Below are positions 7,891 through 38,200 of a stretch of 64,000 bases of DNA, in pieces. How positions within the stretch are numbered: the first letter of the stretch is position 1; every line of letters starts with the position of its first letter. The notes beneath the pieces were generated by a model. That model had not been told where the DNA came from and ran no database searches. It saw only the letters and a program-made list of their open reading frames with translations. Origin of the DNA: Acetomicrobium thermoterrenum DSM 13490 (GTDB lineage Bacteria > Synergistota > Synergistia > Synergistales > Acetomicrobiaceae); the NCBI RefSeq assembly GCF_900107215.1, contig NZ_FNPD01000006.1, positions 49,403 to 113,402 of the forward strand, written 5' to 3'. A program made the translations under genes and the position numbers.

Positions 7891-8637
7891 TTGCGCATAT
7901 TGGAGTTGATAGCGGCTTCATTTGCTTTTTTCAGCAGAATTCCCGTGCCTAAAATCCTTTTGCCCGAAAAAGAACCACCCTATGCCATGATTCTCGTCGT
8001 ATCTCCTCTAATGGGGGGATTCTTAGGCGCTATATGGGGAGGGATAGGGGCATTCCTCAGCTTGAGGTTTGCTGCGCTCGGTGCCGCCTGGGCCTCGGCA
8101 GTAGTATACGTCCTTTTGGGCTGGGGATTGCACCTGGACGGTCTGAGCGACATTGCCGACGGTTGGGCAAGCGGTAAAAGCGGTGAGGAAATGAGAGAGA
8201 TCGTGAAGGACAGCCGCTGCGGTCCCTATGGCGTTATGGCCCTGGTCTTGACCTTTGGCCTCTGGACTTCCCTCCTGTTCGCCCTCCCTTCATGGCGATG
8301 GATAACGATAGGAATGATAGTGAGCGCATCGGGCAAATGGGCGATGTGTTGCGCTGCCTGTATCGGCAATTGTCCTTGGAAGAACAGTATGGCCTTTTCT
8401 TTCGTTCAAAATTTTTCCCTCAAAGAAACCGCTTACGCTTTTGTCTGTTTTGTGTTAATCTTCTTCTTCGGACCTTGGATGTGGGTCTTGTCCTTTTTAG
8501 CGACGACGGTCGTAGGCGTCCTTATGTCCCTTTGGGCACAATACAGATTGGGGGGGATAAGCGGCGACGTCCTTGGGGCAACGGAGGTTTTGGGCGAAGT
8601 CCTTGCCCTTGCTGCTATAGCTTTATTTACGTCCTAA
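7891..8637 (+). CDS. cobS: Adenosylcobinamide-GDP ribazoletransferase (cobalamin synthase), polytopic membrane protein
   Basis: Multiple transmembrane segments and a CobS-like N-terminus (FFSRIPVP). Position directly after cobU. TTG start. Confidence 0.8.
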   Translation: MRILELIAASFAFFSRIPVPKILLPEKEPPYAMILVVSPLMGGFLGAIWGGIGAFLSLRFAALGAAWASAVVYVLLGWGLHLDGLSDIADGWASGKSGEEMREIVKDSRCGPYGVMALVLTFGLWTSLLFALPSWRWITIGMIVSASGKWAMCCAACIGNCPWKNSMAFSFVQNFSLKETAYAFVCFVLIFFFGPWMWVLSFLATTVVGVLMSLWAQYRLGGISGDVLGATEVLGEVLALAAIALFTS

Positions 8638-8702
8638 ACTACCAAGGGCAGGACAGATCCGCAATTTTTAGCACACTGATAAGGAAAGAAGAAGTGGTAA
8701 GA

Positions 8703-9527
8703 ATGAAAAATCCGGTAAGAAAAAAAATAAAACTGATCGCGATAGATCTGGACGGATCTTTATTGACTTCACAAAACAACATTACCGAAAGGACGGCTCT
8801 GGTCATTAAAGAACTGATCTCCCGCGGGGTTATTTTTGTAATAGCAACGGGGAGGATGTTTCCCTCTGCAAGAAAATATGCCCTTCAATTCGGACCCAAT
8901 ACTCAGGTAATATCTTATAACGGCGCCTTGATAAAAAGCGCTGCTGGCGAGCTGTTGTTGCATAAGCCGATACCGCTGAATTTGGCCAAGGACGTGATGT
9001 CCTTTTTAAGGGAGAGGAAATGGCACGTAAACAGCTACATTGACGATGTGCTCTACGTCAAGGAATTGAACCAAAAGGCCTTGATATATGCCAGAAACTC
9101 GGGTGTAACGCCCCAAGTCGCGGGCGATGAGATATACAACCCAAAAAAAGAGCCGACCAAGCTGCTCGTCGTTGCCAACGACCCAAACCAGACGGAGCAA
9201 ATCAGAGACGAGATAAAACTGAATTTCAACGACCGCCTCTTCGTGGCCATTTCATCACCACTTTATATCGATCTTGGGAATCCGGAGACGAGCAAGGGAA
9301 GGGCTATAAAATTTCTGGCCGATCGCCTTGGCATAGAAAGAGACGAAATATGCGTCATAGGCGATTCCGAAAACGACGTAGAGATGTTCGAAGCGGCAGG
9401 AGTGTCGATCGCCATGGGAAACGCCAGAGAGGACGTGAAATCCAAGGCCTCCTTCGTAACTGCCTCCAACGACGAAGATGGCGTAGCCGTAGCCATTGAA
9501 GAGATCGTCATTCCCCGCTATCTTTAA
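8703..9527 (+). CDS. Cof-type HAD-IIB family hydrolase (sugar-phosphate phosphatase)
   Basis: DLDGSLL motif I, ATGR motif II and GDSENDVEMF motif IV. Real start is ATG at 8703 (MKNPVRKK); the 411-aa ORF-track start at 8292 is an unsupported upstream extension that overlaps cobS. Confidence 0.8.
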   Translation: MKNPVRKKIKLIAIDLDGSLLTSQNNITERTALVIKELISRGVIFVIATGRMFPSARKYALQFGPNTQVISYNGALIKSAAGELLLHKPIPLNLAKDVMSFLRERKWHVNSYIDDVLYVKELNQKALIYARNSGVTPQVAGDEIYNPKKEPTKLLVVANDPNQTEQIRDEIKLNFNDRLFVAISSPLYIDLGNPETSKGRAIKFLADRLGIERDEICVIGDSENDVEMFEAAGVSIAMGNAREDVKSKASFVTASNDEDGVAVAIEEIVIPRYL

Positions 9528-31598: not shown

Positions 31599-32411
31599 TT
31601 AGTCGACCAGCTTTAAAGGAACGGCAGCTTCCGGGGTGTTTACGTTAAACGTAAATGTTTCAGTATAATATAAGGATACTACTGTATCATTGTGCTCTTT
31701 ATAACCGATCGAGATGTCCTGTCCCGATACGAGCTCGAAATCTCCGCCGCGAAGGGAGACAACTATTCCGTCGTTTATCTGGGAAGATAGGATTATCCTG
31801 CTGTCGCCAAGAATGTCGCTGATTTTCTTGTAAAGGGGATAGCCTTCTCCTGCGGAGTATATCCTGGTATAAAGGGCCGGGCTTGCAACAAGGGCGTAGG
31901 GTCCTTCGATGCCGTGTAAGGTAAAATGCGCCCTTACCTGTGCCAAGCTTGCTAGGAGCTCCGATGGGTCTTGAAGGGGCAGTTCCTGGACAAACTCTTT
32001 TGAGGCAGCGAAAATGCCTTCTATGCAGGCATCGTCCAAACCATAGAATACTGCTTTATCTTCGAAGGATGCTATCTTTCTGGCTGCTTCTTCGAGACTA
32101 GAGAGATCGGGAGATTTGGAGCCTCTGGCTATACTGTCTAATTCGCATAGGGATAGCTCGAAGGGCACGTAAGCTTCTACCAAAGGCAAACTCAGGCGCG
32201 TAGCATAACAAACCTCTTTGGAGGCATCGCCCTTTTTAAGCTTTCCCGTCGGGTAGGCTGCATAGTCCCAACCCAGGGGGCCTATGAAATCCACAAACTT
32301 TCTTGCGGAGAGGTTCTGTTTTAATATCTCTTCCGATCTTTGGAGTATCTCTTCCCACGCAGGGTTATTTACGGGTGCAAGCTCTTTTTTTAAAAAATCC
32401 ATCTGATTCAT
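31599..32411 (-). CDS. Family-1 encapsulin nanocompartment shell protein (HK97 fold)
   Basis: Aligns along its full length to Thermotoga maritima encapsulin (FVDFIGPLGWDYAAYP, SLRGGDFELVSGQDISIGY, YYTETFTFNVNTPEA). Probable start is MDFLKK at 32402. Confidence 0.85.
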   Translation of the reverse strand: MNQMDFLKKELAPVNNPAWEEILQRSEEILKQNLSARKFVDFIGPLGWDYAAYPTGKLKKGDASKEVCYATRLSLPLVEAYVPFELSLCELDSIARGSKSPDLSSLEEAARKIASFEDKAVFYGLDDACIEGIFAASKEFVQELPLQDPSELLASLAQVRAHFTLHGIEGPYALVASPALYTRIYSAGEGYPLYKKISDILGDSRIILSSQINDGIVVSLRGGDFELVSGQDISIGYKEHNDTVVSLYYTETFTFNVNTPEAAVPLKLVD

Positions 32412-32418
32412 CCCTCCT

Positions 32419-32778
32419 TTACTTTTTAAGAGATCCGATGTTTAAGCTCGAAGGGGCTTTATCCTTCGAGGGTGTTTCGTTTGACGTCGCCGATTCTTCA
32501 ATTTCCGTAATGGGCTCTTCGGTAAAAAGGTAGGTACGAAGAGCTTCGTCCCAACTCGGCATATTTCGCCTCAGCCATTCGAGAAGCATGGCTGCGTGTT
32601 CCATTTCTTCGTCGCGATTATGCTCTACTACTGCTTTAATCGCTGGATCCTTTGTGGCTGCAGCTCTGTCGTTGTACCACATGACTGCCTCTATCTCTTC
32701 TTTGAGGCTGGCCAGGGCTCTGTGAAAATCTCTATCCTGTGCAGTGAGCTCTTCTACCGGTTCATGATATTCGGCCAT
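32419..32778 (-). CDS. Encapsulated ferritin-like cargo protein (EncFtn) with C-terminal targeting peptide
   Basis: HNRDEEMEHAAMLLEWLRRN matches the EncFtn di-iron site. The C-terminus SLNIGSLKK matches the encapsulin cargo-loading peptide. 7-nt gap to the shell gene. Confidence 0.85.
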   Translation of the reverse strand: MAEYHEPVEELTAQDRDFHRALASLKEEIEAVMWYNDRAAATKDPAIKAVVEHNRDEEMEHAAMLLEWLRRNMPSWDEALRTYLFTEEPITEIEESATSNETPSKDKAPSSLNIGSLKK

Positions 32779-32916: not shown

Positions 32917-33852
32917 ATGGAGAACAGGGAATTTCAAGTCGACGAAGCGACCGTCGATACTTCTTTAGATTGGTCGAGCCTCATTGCCTTGGCAGTTACT
33001 CTTTTAGTGTGGTCGTCGGCCTTCGCTGCGATAAAGGCAGCTCTAGAGCATTATACTCCTCTTCATCTTGCTGTCCTCCGTTTTATGATCTCTTCGCTGA
33101 TATTGCTTCCCTTCGTATTTTTTAAGTTCGGTTTGCCCCAATTAAAGGATCTCCCATTTATATTTTTTCTGAGCGCTACGGGCATGCTCCTTTACCATAT
33201 ACCGCTTTGCATTGGAGAACAGACGGTTGCGGCGGGTTCGGCAAGTCTCTTGATCGCCACGGCTCCCGTTTTCACTGCCATATTGGCCGTTATCATCTTA
33301 AAGGAAAAGATGAACCCTTTGGGCTGGGCCGGCATTATCATGAGCTTTACGGGAGCAGCCGTGATTTCACTTGGCGAAGGCGATTTTGGCCTGGAGTTGG
33401 GAGCTCTCTGGATTTTATGTGCGGCCTTTATGGAGTCCTTCTATTTCGTTTACCAGAAAAAGCTTTTACCTAAATATGGTGCCTTTCGTCTTACAACTTA
33501 TGTAATAATGGCCGGAACTATCTTGATGATCCCCTTTGGAAAGGACCTTTTGAAGGCGGTTATAACGGCACCTCCATCTGCCACTATCACTGTCGTGTAT
33601 CTCGCCATTTTCCCGACCTGCATCGGCTATGCGGGCTGGGCTTACGCCACTTCCAGAAATCCTGCCTCTCTGGTTGCCAGCAGTCTATTCCTGAATCCTG
33701 TAATGGCTATATTCATAGCTTGGATATGGCTGGACGAAATGCCCACTTTTATATCGATTATGGGTGGCGTAATCGCAATAGTTGGAGTTTGGATGTTGCA
33801 AAGATCTAGAAGGTCTGGCTCGATAGGGGATGTTTCTAAACGAAAAACATAA
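32917..33852 (+). CDS. DMT-superfamily (EamA-like) transporter
   Basis: Ten predicted transmembrane segments in two EamA repeats. Confidence 0.75.
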   Translation: MENREFQVDEATVDTSLDWSSLIALAVTLLVWSSAFAAIKAALEHYTPLHLAVLRFMISSLILLPFVFFKFGLPQLKDLPFIFFLSATGMLLYHIPLCIGEQTVAAGSASLLIATAPVFTAILAVIILKEKMNPLGWAGIIMSFTGAAVISLGEGDFGLELGALWILCAAFMESFYFVYQKKLLPKYGAFRLTTYVIMAGTILMIPFGKDLLKAVITAPPSATITVVYLAIFPTCIGYAGWAYATSRNPASLVASSLFLNPVMAIFIAWIWLDEMPTFISIMGGVIAIVGVWMLQRSRRSGSIGDVSKRKT

Positions 33853-33891
33853 TACCCAATTAGATTGATATTATAAATTTTAGATAATATT

Positions 33892-34251
33892 TTGTTATCT
33901 ATAGATTATAACATCGACATGATAAGTATAAGTACAAGTATAGAAGATATAAAAGAAGCACAAGAAGCATATGAAAATGAATTTTTAATGTATCAACCTA
34001 TAATAGAGGAAAAGGCTATGGACCTTTATAGTAAAAATCCTGCCGAGGCACAATCTTATTTGACGGATTACGTTAATGACAATATAAATAAGGTTGTTGA
34101 TGGTTGGTGGTCGCTAGCGCAAAGGCTTGTTGGAAAATATTGTGATGGTTATATAACCTATCCTGACGGAAAACAGGATGCTGTTGGATATCCCACGTGG
34201 TGGTTAGAGACTGTCGAATTTGGTAAGGAGGAAATGGAACCAAAGGAATAA
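33892..34251 (+). CDS. Hypothetical small acidic protein inside the AT-rich island
   Basis: ORF of 119 aa in a region of about 30% GC. No recognisable motif, and coding status uncertain. Confidence 0.3.
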   Translation: MLSIDYNIDMISISTSIEDIKEAQEAYENEFLMYQPIIEEKAMDLYSKNPAEAQSYLTDYVNDNINKVVDGWWSLAQRLVGKYCDGYITYPDGKQDAVGYPTWWLETVEFGKEEMEPKE

Positions 34252-34418
34252 GTTTCACTTAAAATATAAAAATCCACCTAAGTTGCTCTCTAAAATTATT
34301 TTTGTATTTCATTTTCAATACGGAGCTCAGGAGAAATTAATTGATAATGTCTATCACACAATAGAGAAGAAGTCTTCTCTATCGTGTGATATTATAATCA
34401 AATAAGAGGTGTAAAAAC

Positions 34419-35408
34419 ATAACCAGATACAAAATCCTTGTTACAGGAACAAGAGGAAAGAGCACTTTGGTAAGGTTAATGACGGCTGGGTTTAAGGCAT
34501 TAGGTATCTCCTGTTTTTCTCGTATTACCGGAGTCGTCCCGATGGAAATATTGCCCAGCGGTGTTCGGCAGATAGTCAGATCGAGAGAGGGGCATATCGA
34601 AGAGCTCCGGTGGTGGCTTTACCATGTGCCCGAAGATTCGGAAGCTATCGTCGTGGAAAACAGTGCTGTCTCCGCCGAGCTTCAGCCTCTGGCGGCAAAG
34701 TGGCTCAAGCCCAACCTAGTAATCTGGACCAACTTAAAGGAAGACCATCCAGAAGCTTGGGGTCCGACGAAAGAAGGTGCGATGCGGGCTTTGCTTTCTG
34801 GGATCCCGAAGGGCGTGCCTGTAGCATTGGGCCCTGACATGCATTTGGAAGAAAAATTGCACGGGATTTTAAAACAAAATCGTAACGAGGTTTTTTTGAC
34901 AGGAGATGCTGTAGATTTTGAGGAAGCAAATAAGGCTTTAGCTATAAATGCTCTAAAGACATATGGACTTAATGTAACAGAGGAATCTCTGAGCAGTAAT
35001 TTAACTGATGATCCAGGTAGATTTAGAGTTCTAAAGATGGGTAATGGTCTTCTGGCATGGGGTTTTTCGGCTAACGACGTAGAAAGCACCGTAAGCCTTC
35101 TTTTTTCCCTTAAATGGCAGAAAGAAGAGACTACTGTGCTTTTTAACAATCGTAGAGATAGGCCGGGAAGGCTGAAGGCGTTTGAACCATGGTTTAATAA
35201 TGCTCAGTACAAAGGTATTTACATTTGCGGTTCCCATCCCCTTCGTCATATAAAAGGTGCTAAATGGATTTATTTTAGGGATGTTGACGAGATCGTTTCT
35301 TTCGTGAGTGAAAGAGGTTTGGTTTTCGGTTGCGGTAATATAGCAGGATTGCCCCTTCGAGAACTGCTCTCTTATGAAGAGGTGAATTATATCTGCGACA
35401 GGATTTAA
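34419..35408 (+). CDS. pgsB: Poly-gamma-glutamate synthase PgsB/CapB-like amide ligase
   Basis: P-loop VTGTRGKST, ENSAVSAEL and LKEDHPE, collinear with B. subtilis PgsB. No ATG/GTG/TTG lies upstream of the P-loop. AAGAGGTG Shine-Dalgarno at 34404-11 sits 7 nt before in-frame ATA at 34419. The track's TTG at 34467 would cut the P-loop. Confidence 0.65.
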   Translation: MTRYKILVTGTRGKSTLVRLMTAGFKALGISCFSRITGVVPMEILPSGVRQIVRSREGHIEELRWWLYHVPEDSEAIVVENSAVSAELQPLAAKWLKPNLVIWTNLKEDHPEAWGPTKEGAMRALLSGIPKGVPVALGPDMHLEEKLHGILKQNRNEVFLTGDAVDFEEANKALAINALKTYGLNVTEESLSSNLTDDPGRFRVLKMGNGLLAWGFSANDVESTVSLLFSLKWQKEETTVLFNNRRDRPGRLKAFEPWFNNAQYKGIYICGSHPLRHIKGAKWIYFRDVDEIVSFVSERGLVFGCGNIAGLPLRELLSYEEVNYICDRI

Positions 35409-35806
35409 TCGTTATCGCTGTAAGTATAGCTTTAGGTTTGATATTTTATCGCAGGACAGGTGTAGCTACGGGAGGGATAATTTCGCCGGGCTTGCTGGCT
35501 TTGGGGCCATTTGCACCACGTACGTTTGCCTTCGTCATACTGAGTTCGCTTCTTGTACTCTCTTTACTGGAAGTCCTCGTCAGGGTTTTTGGCCTATACG
35601 GAAGGGAAAGGGTGTCCTTTGCTTTGCTCATCGCAGCATTGCTGGGCTTTTTCTCGAACCCCTTTTTACCATGGGTTGGATGGGTGGTCCCAGGCCTTAT
35701 CGCTGCTGACATGCAGCGTCAAGGCGTCATTCCAACGTCCTTGGCGCTGTTTGTCGTTACCGGATTATCTGTCTTAATGGGGAATTTGGTATATGAGATA
35801 TTTTAA
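35393..35806 (+). CDS. pgsC: Poly-gamma-glutamate synthase membrane component PgsC/CapC
   Basis: VPGLIAADMQRQG matches B. subtilis VPGLIANTIQKQG. The upstream in-frame DLIVIAVSIALGLIF matches the PgsC N-terminus DLYIALILGVLLSLIF, so the start must lie upstream of the TTG at 35438. Candidate start is CTG 35393, 8 nt after a second AAGAGGTG. Confidence 0.65.
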   Translation: MRQDLIVIAVSIALGLIFYRRTGVATGGIISPGLLALGPFAPRTFAFVILSSLLVLSLLEVLVRVFGLYGRERVSFALLIAALLGFFSNPFLPWVGWVVPGLIAADMQRQGVIPTSLALFVVTGLSVLMGNLVYEIF

Positions 35807-36869
35807 CGCCTTCGTGCGTGGCATATTTTCGATGATCCTGGGAAAGGACACAACTTTATCGCGAAGGTGTAACCTGTATCTTTTCATGCTTGCCGCCGTT
35901 ATATCTTTATTGGTGTGGTCCTGGCCTTCAGGAACTCTCACTGTCGAGGAGGAAAGGGTTTGGGATCGGATCAGAGAAGCTCAATTTTATCTTTACAGCT
36001 TAAAAACGCAAAGAGAAGGAGTTGCTCCCTCTCAAAGCTTGGACCCTTGGCAAAGCGGTCTTATCGGGACCGAATGGAGCATCATAACTACCACAGTGGG
36101 CTCTTTGGCGTCCAAACAGATTTCATGTAATCCCCTCTGGGGCGCGATCTTTCTGCGTTGGTTCGATAAGGCGGGACTAAAGCGAGGAGACAGGATTGCA
36201 ATCTTAAGCTCAGGTTCTTTTCCAGGTTTTTTGATATCTTCCCTGGTCGCCGCAGAGGAAAGGGGGTTAGATGTGCTGCTTGTTGTCTCGCTGGGCGCAT
36301 CTTCCTATGGCGCTAATGATCCGAATTTTCCTATCCCGATAATTCTAAGGGAACTGAGAAGGGCAGGATTTATCTCTACGAAGGCGGCTTTTTATACCTT
36401 TGGCGGAGACTACGAAATAGGAGCAGGCATTCCTCCGGATGGACTTGAAATATTGTCGCAATCTGCGATATCGGACGATGTACCGCTTTTACAAGCGAAG
36501 TCATTGCAAGAAGTGATTGATGCAAAGGTAGGACGTTTGGATATATTTAAACCTGCTTTGGTGGTGCAAATTGGCGGATCTCATGCAAATATGGGAACCG
36601 ACGATGCTGTATTGTCGTTACCACCAGGTTTTTTGGATTCAAGATATGCCGAACGCGCCGGCAATGGGGTTATAGGATTGGTCCTCAAAAGAGGAATACC
36701 AGTTATACATATGCTTAACGTCAAAAGTTTATGCCGGATGACCGGCGTTTCCGAAGGGGTAGAAGTTGCAAAGAAAGGACCGAAGCCCTTCAAATTTTCA
36801 AGGGCCTTTTTAGGCCTACTATTTTTTGCCGTCTTTTTGTATAAGTATGAGCGATGGGCCTTTGAGTAA
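35793..36869 (+). CDS. Membrane-anchored protein coupled to pgsBC (possible PGA-system accessory protein; not CapA-like)
   Basis: Overlaps the pgsC stop. One N-terminal transmembrane helix. No metallophosphatase motifs of CapA/PgsA. Confidence 0.4.
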   Translation: MRYFNAFVRGIFSMILGKDTTLSRRCNLYLFMLAAVISLLVWSWPSGTLTVEEERVWDRIREAQFYLYSLKTQREGVAPSQSLDPWQSGLIGTEWSIITTTVGSLASKQISCNPLWGAIFLRWFDKAGLKRGDRIAILSSGSFPGFLISSLVAAEERGLDVLLVVSLGASSYGANDPNFPIPIILRELRRAGFISTKAAFYTFGGDYEIGAGIPPDGLEILSQSAISDDVPLLQAKSLQEVIDAKVGRLDIFKPALVVQIGGSHANMGTDDAVLSLPPGFLDSRYAERAGNGVIGLVLKRGIPVIHMLNVKSLCRMTGVSEGVEVAKKGPKPFKFSRAFLGLLFFAVFLYKYERWAFE

Positions 36870-37069
36870 AGGTGTAAGTATCCTCTTTTTAAATGATATA
36901 CATAGCAGCTTAATATAACAATGAACTCGCCTTAATTCCTTTTTATATCAGGATAAAAATATATTTTTTTGATATTCGTGATACAATTAATCTTAACCTC
37001 TAAGTTCCTCTTTATTAAAAGATGTTGCGGAGGTGATTCGGAAGCGGGAGCTTCAAGGGGGTGTTTTGA

Positions 37070-38200
37070 TTGAATGACGAAAGATTTGATCGACTGGCCG
37101 GTGAGCTTTTGAGGCTCATAGAAATTCCAAGTCCGAGCGGAAATGAAGGACCTATCTTGGGATACCTCGAAAAAAGGCTGCAGTTTCTTGACCTTCCTTC
37201 AAAAAGGCAAATGATAACCGAAAATATGGGAAATTTAGTCTTTAACCCGGGTTCTAAGGTGTTGTTCGATCTTCATGTAGACACCGTTCCTGAAATCATG
37301 GAAGGTATTAAGTGTAACCCGTATCTGGACGGAGATTTGGTTTACGGCAGAGGGGCATCCGACATAAAAGGGTCAATAGCATCGCTCATAATTGCCCTGG
37401 AAGACTATGCACAGATAACCAAAGGGGATGTTGACTTTCCTGCGAGCATAGTTTTTACCGTCGACGAAGAACAGGGCGGCAGAGGAGCCTGCGAAGCAGT
37501 GAACCTAAAGCCGGAAGAGGTCATCGTCTTTGAGCCGACGGAGCTTGATATATGCACAATGGAAGCAGGAGCCATAGGAGTCAGACTGAATTTTTCAGGT
37601 AGGCCCGCCCATGGAAGCGATTTCGAGGCGGGAGAAAACGCCATTACAAAGGCCATCGAATTTTTGTCCAAATTGAAGGAATTACCCTTTCTCGAAGGGG
37701 AGCATCCTCGCATTGGCGAGGCCGGATTCAACGTGCAGGCTCTGTTTGGCGGTTCTGTCGACGAACTGGTCATTCCAAGCCGAAGCGAGATGTACGTCGA
37801 TTTCAGGTTATTGCCAGGGGTAGATCACAGAGAGGCAGAGATTCAGTTAAGGCAGTTCTTTGAGGAGAAGGGGGTCGACTACGAGATCGACGATGTCTCG
37901 CCTTCCTTTCAGTTGGACGATGAAGTTCCAATCGCCAGGAAACTTAAGGAAGTTGCTTCAGCAAAGTTAGGCCTGAGCTTGCAAACGGGAGCTTTTAAAA
38001 GTTGGAGCGATGCAGAGCCTTACGTTACAGCGGGCATCCCCGCGATAGTTTTTGGTCCAGGAAAGCTCTCCATATCCCATACGCCCTTTGAACACATCTC
38101 CTTGGGGGAAATGGATGTTGCAAGCAGGATTTTGACGGCCTTTTTGGCCTCCCTTACAGATATCTCGAGGGATGAGTTGAATATTTCAAGGGTTCGCTGA
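37070..38200 (+). CDS. M20-family metallopeptidase (ArgE/DapE-type deacylase)
   Basis: LFDLHVDTV and GRGASDIKGSIAS metal-binding motifs. Confidence 0.75.
   Translation: MNDERFDRLAGELLRLIEIPSPSGNEGPILGYLEKRLQFLDLPSKRQMITENMGNLVFNPGSKVLFDLHVDTVPEIMEGIKCNPYLDGDLVYGRGASDIKGSIASLIIALEDYAQITKGDVDFPASIVFTVDEEQGGRGACEAVNLKPEEVIVFEPTELDICTMEAGAIGVRLNFSGRPAHGSDFEAGENAITKAIEFLSKLKELPFLEGEHPRIGEAGFNVQALFGGSVDELVIPSRSEMYVDFRLLPGVDHREAEIQLRQFFEEKGVDYEIDDVSPSFQLDDEVPIARKLKEVASAKLGLSLQTGAFKSWSDAEPYVTAGIPAIVFGPGKLSISHTPFEHISLGEMDVASRILTAFLASLTDISRDELNISRVR

Follow-up and report, generated by a model that had tools for sequence, protein, structure and literature searches.

The stretch of the Acetomicrobium thermoterrenum DSM 13490 genome investigated here (contig NZ_FNPD01000006.1, positions 49,403 to 113,402 of the forward strand; 64,000 nucleotides [nt], hereafter the window) harbors a three-gene operon composed of a pgsB-like gene, a pgsC-like gene and a third gene for a "poly-gamma-glutamate system protein" (Table 1). 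Our analysis indicates that this operon is probably functional and that its first two genes most likely use near-cognate start codons, each placed behind the same strong Shine-Dalgarno (SD) sequence AAGAGGTG.

Table 1. Features of the pgsB-pgsC operon and its leader (window coordinates; aa, amino acids).
Feature	Position	Strand	Remarks
Stem-loop	34352..34391	+	17 predicted pairs, 8 and 9 of them flanking a single unpaired position per side; located just 5' of the ribosome-binding site of pgsB
-10-like box TGATATTATAAT (TATTAT or TATAAT with upstream TG)	34387..34398	+	Ends 5 nt before the SD; read from the sequence
SD AAGAGGTG of the pgsB-like gene	34404..34411	+	7-nt spacer, then ATA 34419
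pgsB-like gene, Mur-ligase-family amide ligase	34419..35408	+	329 aa; proposed ATA start; stop TAA 35406-08
P-loop coding segment VTGTRGKST, residues 8-16	34440..34466	+	5' of the sole canonical start TTG 34467
SD AAGAGGTG of the pgsC-like gene	35377..35384	+	Within pgsB codons E-E-V; 8 nt before CTG 35393
pgsC-like gene, CapC-family membrane protein	35393..35806	+	137 aa; proposed CTG start; stop TAA 35804-06
Alternative pgsC start ATC	35408..35410	+	Shares TAATC with the pgsB stop; TAATG in the A. mobile clade
Third gene, "poly-gamma-glutamate system protein"	35793..36869	+	358 aa; ATG start; overlaps the pgsC end by 14 nt

The PgsB-like protein matches the NCBIfam profile TIGR04012 (PgsB) with 92.9 bits (E 1.7e-26, profile positions 30-321 of 380), which is below the equivalog cut-off of 222.7 bits. 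It also matches the Mur-ligase middle domain PF08245 (31 bits, cut-off 24) and carries the Mur-ligase P-loop G-x-x-G-K-S/T after strand 1; a comparison of the PgsB profile with the PDB returned P-loop-level matches to Mur ligases only. The PgsC-like protein matches PF14102 (CapC) with 80.2 bits over residues 11-115 (gathering score 27) and likewise remains below the equivalog cut-off of TIGR04011 (67.9 versus 96.45 bits). The original prediction, which was made from the DNA alone, had called PgsB and PgsC unambiguous; the family similarity holds, but the wording was too strong for two proteins below their equivalog cut-offs, which on these scores constitute a divergent subfamily. The third protein has a Rossmann-like alpha/beta domain flanked at either terminus by long hydrophobic helices that probably serve as membrane anchors. 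It had been described as unlike CapA/PgsA, with the suggestion to compare it to the family of poly-gamma-glutamate (PGA) system proteins. Both points proved correct: it belongs to NCBIfam TIGR04332 (350.9 bits, E 5.7e-105, profile positions 2-302 of 307; cut-off 100) and has no Pfam match, including the CapA/PgsA domain PGA_cap (PF09587). The suspected variant PGA system is thus real, but it is already catalogued in NCBIfam under TIGR04332. The order pgsB-pgsC-TIGR04332 gene is also present in five related loci (L003, L006, L007, L088 and L090). Our literature searches found no mention of TIGR04332 and no cryo-electron microscopy paper on PgsBCA, and a search for "Synergist" together with PgsB yielded no Synergistota PGA cluster among the matches listed.

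The pgsB-like frame contains an in-frame TAA (34395-97) eight codons 5' of ATA 34419 and continues with TCA AAT AAG AGG TGT AAA AAC ATA ACC AGA TAC AAA ATC CTT and then GTT ACA GGA ACA AGA GGA AAG AGC ACT TTG. The 23 codons after the stop include neither ATG nor GTG nor TTG, and the first canonical codon, TTG 34467, is located 3' of the P-loop. Our codon-by-codon reading agrees in this respect with the original prediction, whose SD sequence 7 nt before the in-frame ATA was found base for base. An alignment of 14 family members shows that the P-loop residues V8, T9, G10, R12, G13, K14 and S15 are invariant. The AlphaFold2 model of the PgsB-like protein (predicted local distance difference test score 88) places strand 1 at residues 4-9 (YKILVT), the P-loop at residues 10-16 and a helix at residues 14-27. 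TTG 34467 corresponds to residue 17, and a start at this codon would therefore delete the ATP-binding site, i.e., strand 1 and the whole P-loop. Only seven residues precede V8 in the proposed protein, and family members begin 5-25 codons before the P-loop; an N-terminal hydrophobic segment ahead of the P-loop, as in Bacillus PgsB, was not found in it. A start at ATC 34434 was rejected, because this codon is 22 nt away from the SD and is replaced by GTC in two close relatives (L002 and L008).

In the pgsC-like frame, a TGA at 35375-77 is followed by an open frame from 35378 onwards, with TTG 35438 as the first canonical codon. The second SD 8 nt before CTG 35393 and the position of this TTG were confirmed, as was the earlier claim that PgsC homology reaches 5' of it: the alignments with TIGR04011 and PF14102 begin at residues 8 and 11 of the CTG-initiated protein, of which TTG 35438 is residue 16. 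The pgsC starts of the family are mostly located 21-26 codons before the anchor glycine of the motif TG..GGIISPG, and CTG 35393 lies at codon 22. Compared with shuffled sequence, the initiation region shows less structure (z +1.26). The CTG proposed in the original prediction was borne out as a candidate, but ATC 35408 is a second non-canonical candidate that had not been listed.

The octamer AAGAGGTG occurs seven times in the window versus 1.8 expected copies, a number that was reached in none of 100 shuffles. Of the five copies outside the operon, three stand before genuine gene starts, two of them with a 7-nt spacer to an ATG (20159 and 49993) and one with a 6-nt spacer to a GTG. ATA and CTG are thus located at the very spot where ribosomes of this organism would normally find a start codon. 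A survey of the 53 long open reading frames (ORFs) of the window revealed an SD near the 5' end together with a canonical start in most other genes. The combination of a strong SD with a near-cognate codon, with the first canonical codon 20-23 codons downstream, was found exclusively in pgsB and pgsC, which shows that the feature is specific for these two genes and not a genome-wide property. A third candidate, the ORF 8187-9524 (AAGGA and CTG), was dismissed as a wrong-frame artefact, since its 5' part is a non-coding-looking frame that overlaps another gene. The mechanical ORF list contains only the truncated versions 34467..35408 and 35438..35806.

The conservation of the start codons was traced in several relatives. 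The Logan assembly SRR4136398 (L001) contains the same sequence as the window, and close relatives are Logan SRR23829990 (L002, 97% identity) and Acetomicrobium sp. UBA5826 (L008, 95% protein identity). An Acetomicrobium sp. lineage with 66% identity is represented by at least five assemblies (L003-L006 and L009), and the A. mobile clade comprises L007, L088 and L090, with A. mobile 65-66% identical to the window protein. L002 and L008 both keep ATA, its SD and CTG, and nearby bases differ (AAC/AAG, ATC/GTC, TTA/TTG). In the 66% lineage the pgsB region reads ...GGGAGTGTGTA ATA GAT ATT ACA AAA TAT AGA GTG CTC GTT ACG GGT. It offers ATA or ATT at the N-terminus, and its sole canonical codon is a GTG that belongs to the V-L-V-T-G strand and lacks an SD; the pgsC frame of this lineage has an in-frame TAA directly 5' of CTG and opens at this codon. 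The ratio of non-synonymous to synonymous substitution rates (dN/dS) is 0.17-0.24 for pgsB, with saturated synonymous sites in the comparison with L003, and 0.14-0.23 for pgsC in the close group and 0.13-0.14 versus distant lineages. The presence of the same state in the 66% lineage and the low dN/dS values are indicative of an old condition without canonical starts, in genes that are under purifying selection.

Where the window has ATA, TTG is found in the A. mobile clade, if a one-residue gap is allowed in the protein alignment (TTG AAG GCG AAA TAC.., TTG ACC GCA.. and TTG ACA GTA..). ATG is present at the pgsB start in none of the Acetomicrobium-clade loci examined, which have TTG, ATT/ATA or ATA instead. 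The original prediction had left the choice between the use of rare initiation codons and the mutation of a start codon, for example from ATG to ATA. The former is favored as the present stable state. A mutation within the clade is not, and the nearest relatives with a canonical pgsB codon use TTG, without any ATG-to-ATA step within the clade.

Within the wider family, 73 of 83 distinct loci have a canonical pgsB start 4-30 codons before the P-loop threonine (45 ATG, 14 GTG and 14 TTG, assigned by the best SD). The ten loci without such a start belong to five lineages, namely, the window group, the L003 group, L085 (AAGGAGG, 8 nt, CTG), L080 (GGAG.. followed by ATC) and L035/L048 (no usable canonical start). 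This frequency is far above the usual for a single gene family; in E. coli only two non-canonical starts have been confirmed, those of infC and pcnB (bioRxiv 10.1101/063800). With respect to pgsC, L049 exhibits GGAGGT, 9 nt and GTG at exactly 22 codons before the anchor, and L010 (ATG) and L085 (GTG) start at 23 codons with the SD at the same site; GGAGGT occupies the SD position in all three. The arrangement AAGAGGTG-N8-CTG is invariant in seven of seven Acetomicrobium-clade sequences, even where an ATG exists at the TAATG overlap. A TTG two bases after the SD in the pgsC frame of L008 was discarded as a start: its spacer would be too short, and neither the window nor L002 has this codon.

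In the mechanism that we propose, pgsB would start at ATA 34419 and pgsC most likely at CTG 35393, a placement to which we give a slightly better than even chance; a start at ATC 35408 by termination-reinitiation at TAATC would be less likely. The initiator tRNA would read ATA and CTG with one mismatch, resulting in a normal formyl-methionine N-terminus at a small fraction of the efficiency of AUG. The codons AUA, AUC, AUU and CUG reach 1-2% of the AUG level of initiation in E. coli (bioRxiv 10.1101/063800), and initiation factor IF3 is described as the factor that discriminates against near-cognate start codons (PMC9723500). Synthesis of PgsB and PgsC would accordingly be low in comparison with the third protein, which starts at ATG, and the near-cognate starts probably represent a low-expression setting.

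Among the alternatives, a pgsC start at ATC 35408 fares best, but we regard it as rather unlikely, and it would still be non-canonical. The A. mobile clade has an ATG exactly there, from which gene callers obtain a 132-aa product. ATC 35408 is residue 6 of the proposed protein, so that the family domain, aligned from residue 8 in TIGR04011, would still be covered, and a weak AGGA is located 4 nt upstream. However, the codon is only 17 codons away from the anchor, the strong SD lies 23 nt 5' of it but 8 nt 5' of CTG 35393, and the geometry of SD, 8-nt spacer and CTG is retained where ATG exists and matches the GTG start of L049. That PgsB and PgsC are no longer made, their genes decaying after loss of the original starts, appears improbable. 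Near-cognate codons do initiate poorly, and the window lacks the genes for gamma-glutamyltranspeptidase (GGT) and an AstE-like protein, which most relatives carry beside the cluster. The intact ORFs with a dN/dS of 0.13-0.24 in both genes speak against decay, as do the occurrence of the same state in a lineage with saturated pgsB synonymous sites, the strong SDs at working distance and the invariance of the P-loop codons 5' of the first canonical start.

Translation of shorter proteins from TTG 34467 and TTG 35438 is even less credible. These are the sole ATG, GTG or TTG codons available, and relatives have an ATG at the position of TTG 35438, which one caller used for a 122-aa product. Neither TTG is preceded by an SD, however, and the codons 5' of both are conserved as protein; apart from the loss of strand 1 and the P-loop in PgsB, the PgsC product would lack its first 15 residues, seven of which align to the CapC and PgsC profiles. 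A sequencing or assembly error that hides a true ATG (34419) and, for pgsC, a canonical codon (35393) has a negligible chance: both the window and the related sequences were assembled from metagenomes or sequencing runs, but the separately assembled SRR4136398, SRR23829990 and UBA5826 share identical codons, and the 66% lineage adds at least five assemblies with ATA/ATT and CTG. The same negligible chance applies to a PgsB-PgsC fusion via -1 ribosomal frameshifting in the overlap 35378-35406, which would relieve pgsC of the need for a start; the pgsC frame is indeed -1 relative to pgsB and open from 35378, but GTG AAT TAT ATC TGC GAC AGG ATT TAA contains no X XXY YYZ slippery heptamer, the strong SD is placed at initiation distance, the pgsC genes of relatives are separate with canonical starts of their own, and the missing pgsB start would be left unexplained.

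Several points weigh against our proposal of near-cognate initiation in a functional operon. Initiation at ATA and CTG is a prediction from the sequence, and both the low expression and the gamma-glutamyl polymer as product are predictions of the same kind. PgsB and PgsC do not reach their equivalog cut-offs, and the polymer product is putative for this subfamily. The initiation efficiencies of E. coli may not be transferable to Synergistota. The conservation of AAGAGGTG and CTGC is confounded, as the same bases encode the C-terminus of PgsB (EEV..C), and the ATG at the TAATG overlap of the A. mobile clade is a reason why ATC 35408 could be the true pgsC site.

The leader of pgsB is predicted to be strongly structured, with -26.1 kcal/mol (z -5.3) for the RNA fold of 34345-34445. 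In a consensus fold of seven Acetomicrobium-clade sequences, equivalent to only about three independent lineages, pairing is retained despite substitutions in both partners at 10 of 16 pairs. The hairpin is found at the same place with a different sequence in all three Acetomicrobium sub-clades (window, 34352-34391; L003, ~2920-2955; L007, ~2865-2905; L088/L090, ~1420-1460). A U-rich tract on its 3' side makes it terminator-like in the A. mobile clade, and in the window the -10-like TGATATTATAAT comes next; L003 has TACAAT at the position of this box. The hairpin could represent an attenuator, a terminator of the upstream gene or an operator palindrome. Rfam returned no credible RNA family, neither for the whole window at gathering thresholds nor for the leader (33850-34480) at E <= 5. 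A consensus promoter and terminator scan of 33800-37100 called no terminator at the hairpin and no plus-strand sigma-70 site 5' of pgsB, the -10-like box having no -35 partner. TGATATTATAAT might serve as the -10 box of a promoter, in which case the 5' end of the mRNA would be located practically at the SD.

The region between the upstream EamA gene and pgsB contains a small ORF (window, 33892-34251 and 34220-34405; L002, 2667-2948) of 119 aa, which has no Pfam match, is not conserved and is probably not a real gene. A deletion of ~200 bp in L002 and L008 fuses its 5' part to another frame that runs through the hairpin and ends at a TAA just before the SD, and the small ORF is missing in L003.

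Two other arrangements were observed upstream of pgsB in the family. In 11 loci (L015, L023, L026, L030, L038, L039, L040, L041, L051, L068 and L071) the pgsB ATG lacks an SD and is preceded by a -10 hexamer close to the consensus, in most cases TAGAAT and frequently with TG upstream of it, whose end is 6-7 nt away from the start codon; the ATG is located near position 2975-2985 in most of them, with the hexamer about 20 nt before it. L017 was not included in this set; its hexamer is CATAAT, the end of which is 8 nt away from the ATG. Leaderless pgsB mRNAs are therefore predicted for a subset of Synergistota. In L010, L085, L034, L049 and L054 the element TA(A/G)TCT-WWW-GGGGCGGCC-loop-GGCCGCCCC-TTT is found ~60-20 nt 5' of the pgsB start, between a -10-like box and the SD. 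It may represent a regulatory or stabilizing hairpin of the 5'-untranslated region, and its conservation is unusual for a plain terminator; PgsB identity between the respective lineages and the window amounts to only 40-52%.

The absence of ATG from the pgsB starts of the Acetomicrobium clade (TTG, ATT/ATA or ATA) and the CTG at pgsC raise the question of whether the weak start codons reflect selected translational control rather than drift, an idea that we consider tentative and on balance unlikely. Under such control the PgsB-PgsC core would be held about 50-100-fold below an AUG gene, its synthesis would rise in the manner of infC when IF3 discrimination relaxes, for example under stress or slow growth, and the covarying 5' hairpin would act as a second gate. 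If this is true, the pgsB starts of other Synergistota at CTG, at ATC or without a leader would provide a natural model for the tuning of expression by unusual initiation.

The operon belongs by its sequence to a poly-gamma-glutamate-type cluster family that is widespread in Synergistota. In most family members, genes for an AstE/AspA-like protein and GGT precede the cluster. Of the family loci retrieved, 51 have a GGT-like gene at a distance of up to 3 kb, and 45 have an AstE/AspA-like gene; one example is L085 (13-2877), with GGT (PF01019, 540 bits) directly upstream of pgsB. This linkage supports gamma-glutamyl chemistry. Many of the GGT genes end with ...GGADSRRLGVPVGY*. The Acetomicrobium clade has lost the AstE/GGT linkage. 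The 64-kb window contains no homologue of either gene, and the A. mobile clade has a Peptidase_C69 gene upstream. The cluster of the window is flanked by EamA upstream and an M20 peptidase downstream, and the M20 arrangement is common to L003.

The Bacillus pgsBCA(E)/capBCA(D)(E) operons have the same order of ligase, CapC-family membrane protein and third membrane-anchored protein, and they share the Mur-ligase P-loop of the ligase and the similarity to PF14102 and TIGR04012/TIGR04011. The PgsB-like protein of the window differs from Bacillus PgsB by the lack of about 29 N-terminal profile positions, which we take to be the membrane-anchor segment of the latter, and the third protein belongs to TIGR04332, whereas it is PgsA/CapA (PF09587) in Bacillus. 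The closest studied system appears to be the three-gene capB-capC-capA cluster of Francisella tularensis, a likeness of gene order and product name only. There, capA encodes a product listed under the same name as TIGR04332, 'poly-gamma-glutamate system protein' (PMC5362203, Table 3); capBCA is needed for virulence but not for the capsule, and its function is listed as unknown (PMC4688374). In contrast to Francisella, the Synergistota clusters usually add GGT and AstE-like genes.

With respect to the start codons, the E. coli genes infC and pcnB (both AUU) are comparable in their SD-directed start one mismatch away from AUG; their low efficiency and IF3 sensitivity would by analogy be expected here as well. 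The Acetomicrobium case differs in the codons (ATA and CTG, or ATC), in the involvement of two adjacent genes of one operon and in the recurrence of the state in several lineages of one gene family. Acetomicrobium pgsB and pgsC are not known to follow an autoregulatory logic of the infC kind. To our knowledge, very few non-canonical bacterial starts have been confirmed. The locus is a well-supported candidate for a new example of near-cognate initiation, in a cluster type that is known but uncharacterized. Initiation at ATA and CTG would represent an evolutionarily stable example in two adjacent genes with parallel cases in the same family, and pgsB and pgsC are a natural target for studying initiation outside model bacteria. 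The Synergistota clusters moreover offer non-pathogenic systems for gamma-glutamyl chemistry and for the function of TIGR04332-type clusters.

Gene calls for the clade reflect the unusual starts. For the window sequence (L001) pgsB was called with 288 aa and pgsC not at all; for the 97% relative, pgsB has 313 aa (P0001) and no pgsC is listed in L002. The calls for L003-L005 comprise a pgsB of 325 aa and no pgsC, and those for L006 a pgsB of 325 aa and a pgsC of 122 aa. Public calls for the clade thus contain a PgsB without the ATP-binding loop (313 or 288 aa) and a PgsC that is missing or truncated to 122 aa, so that one may easily mistake the cluster for a broken one.

A gene for an encapsulin shell protein (Linocin_M18) and, next to it, a gene for an EncFtn-like ferritin cargo are located ~1.6 kb upstream of the operon on the minus strand (31599-32778), and this pair is syntenic in L002 and L003. 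Finally, two copies of the pgsB-like cluster were observed on different contigs of one metagenome-assembled genome in two cases, namely, L025 and L012 in JBFFHJ01 and L022 and L028 in a Fretibacterium genome.

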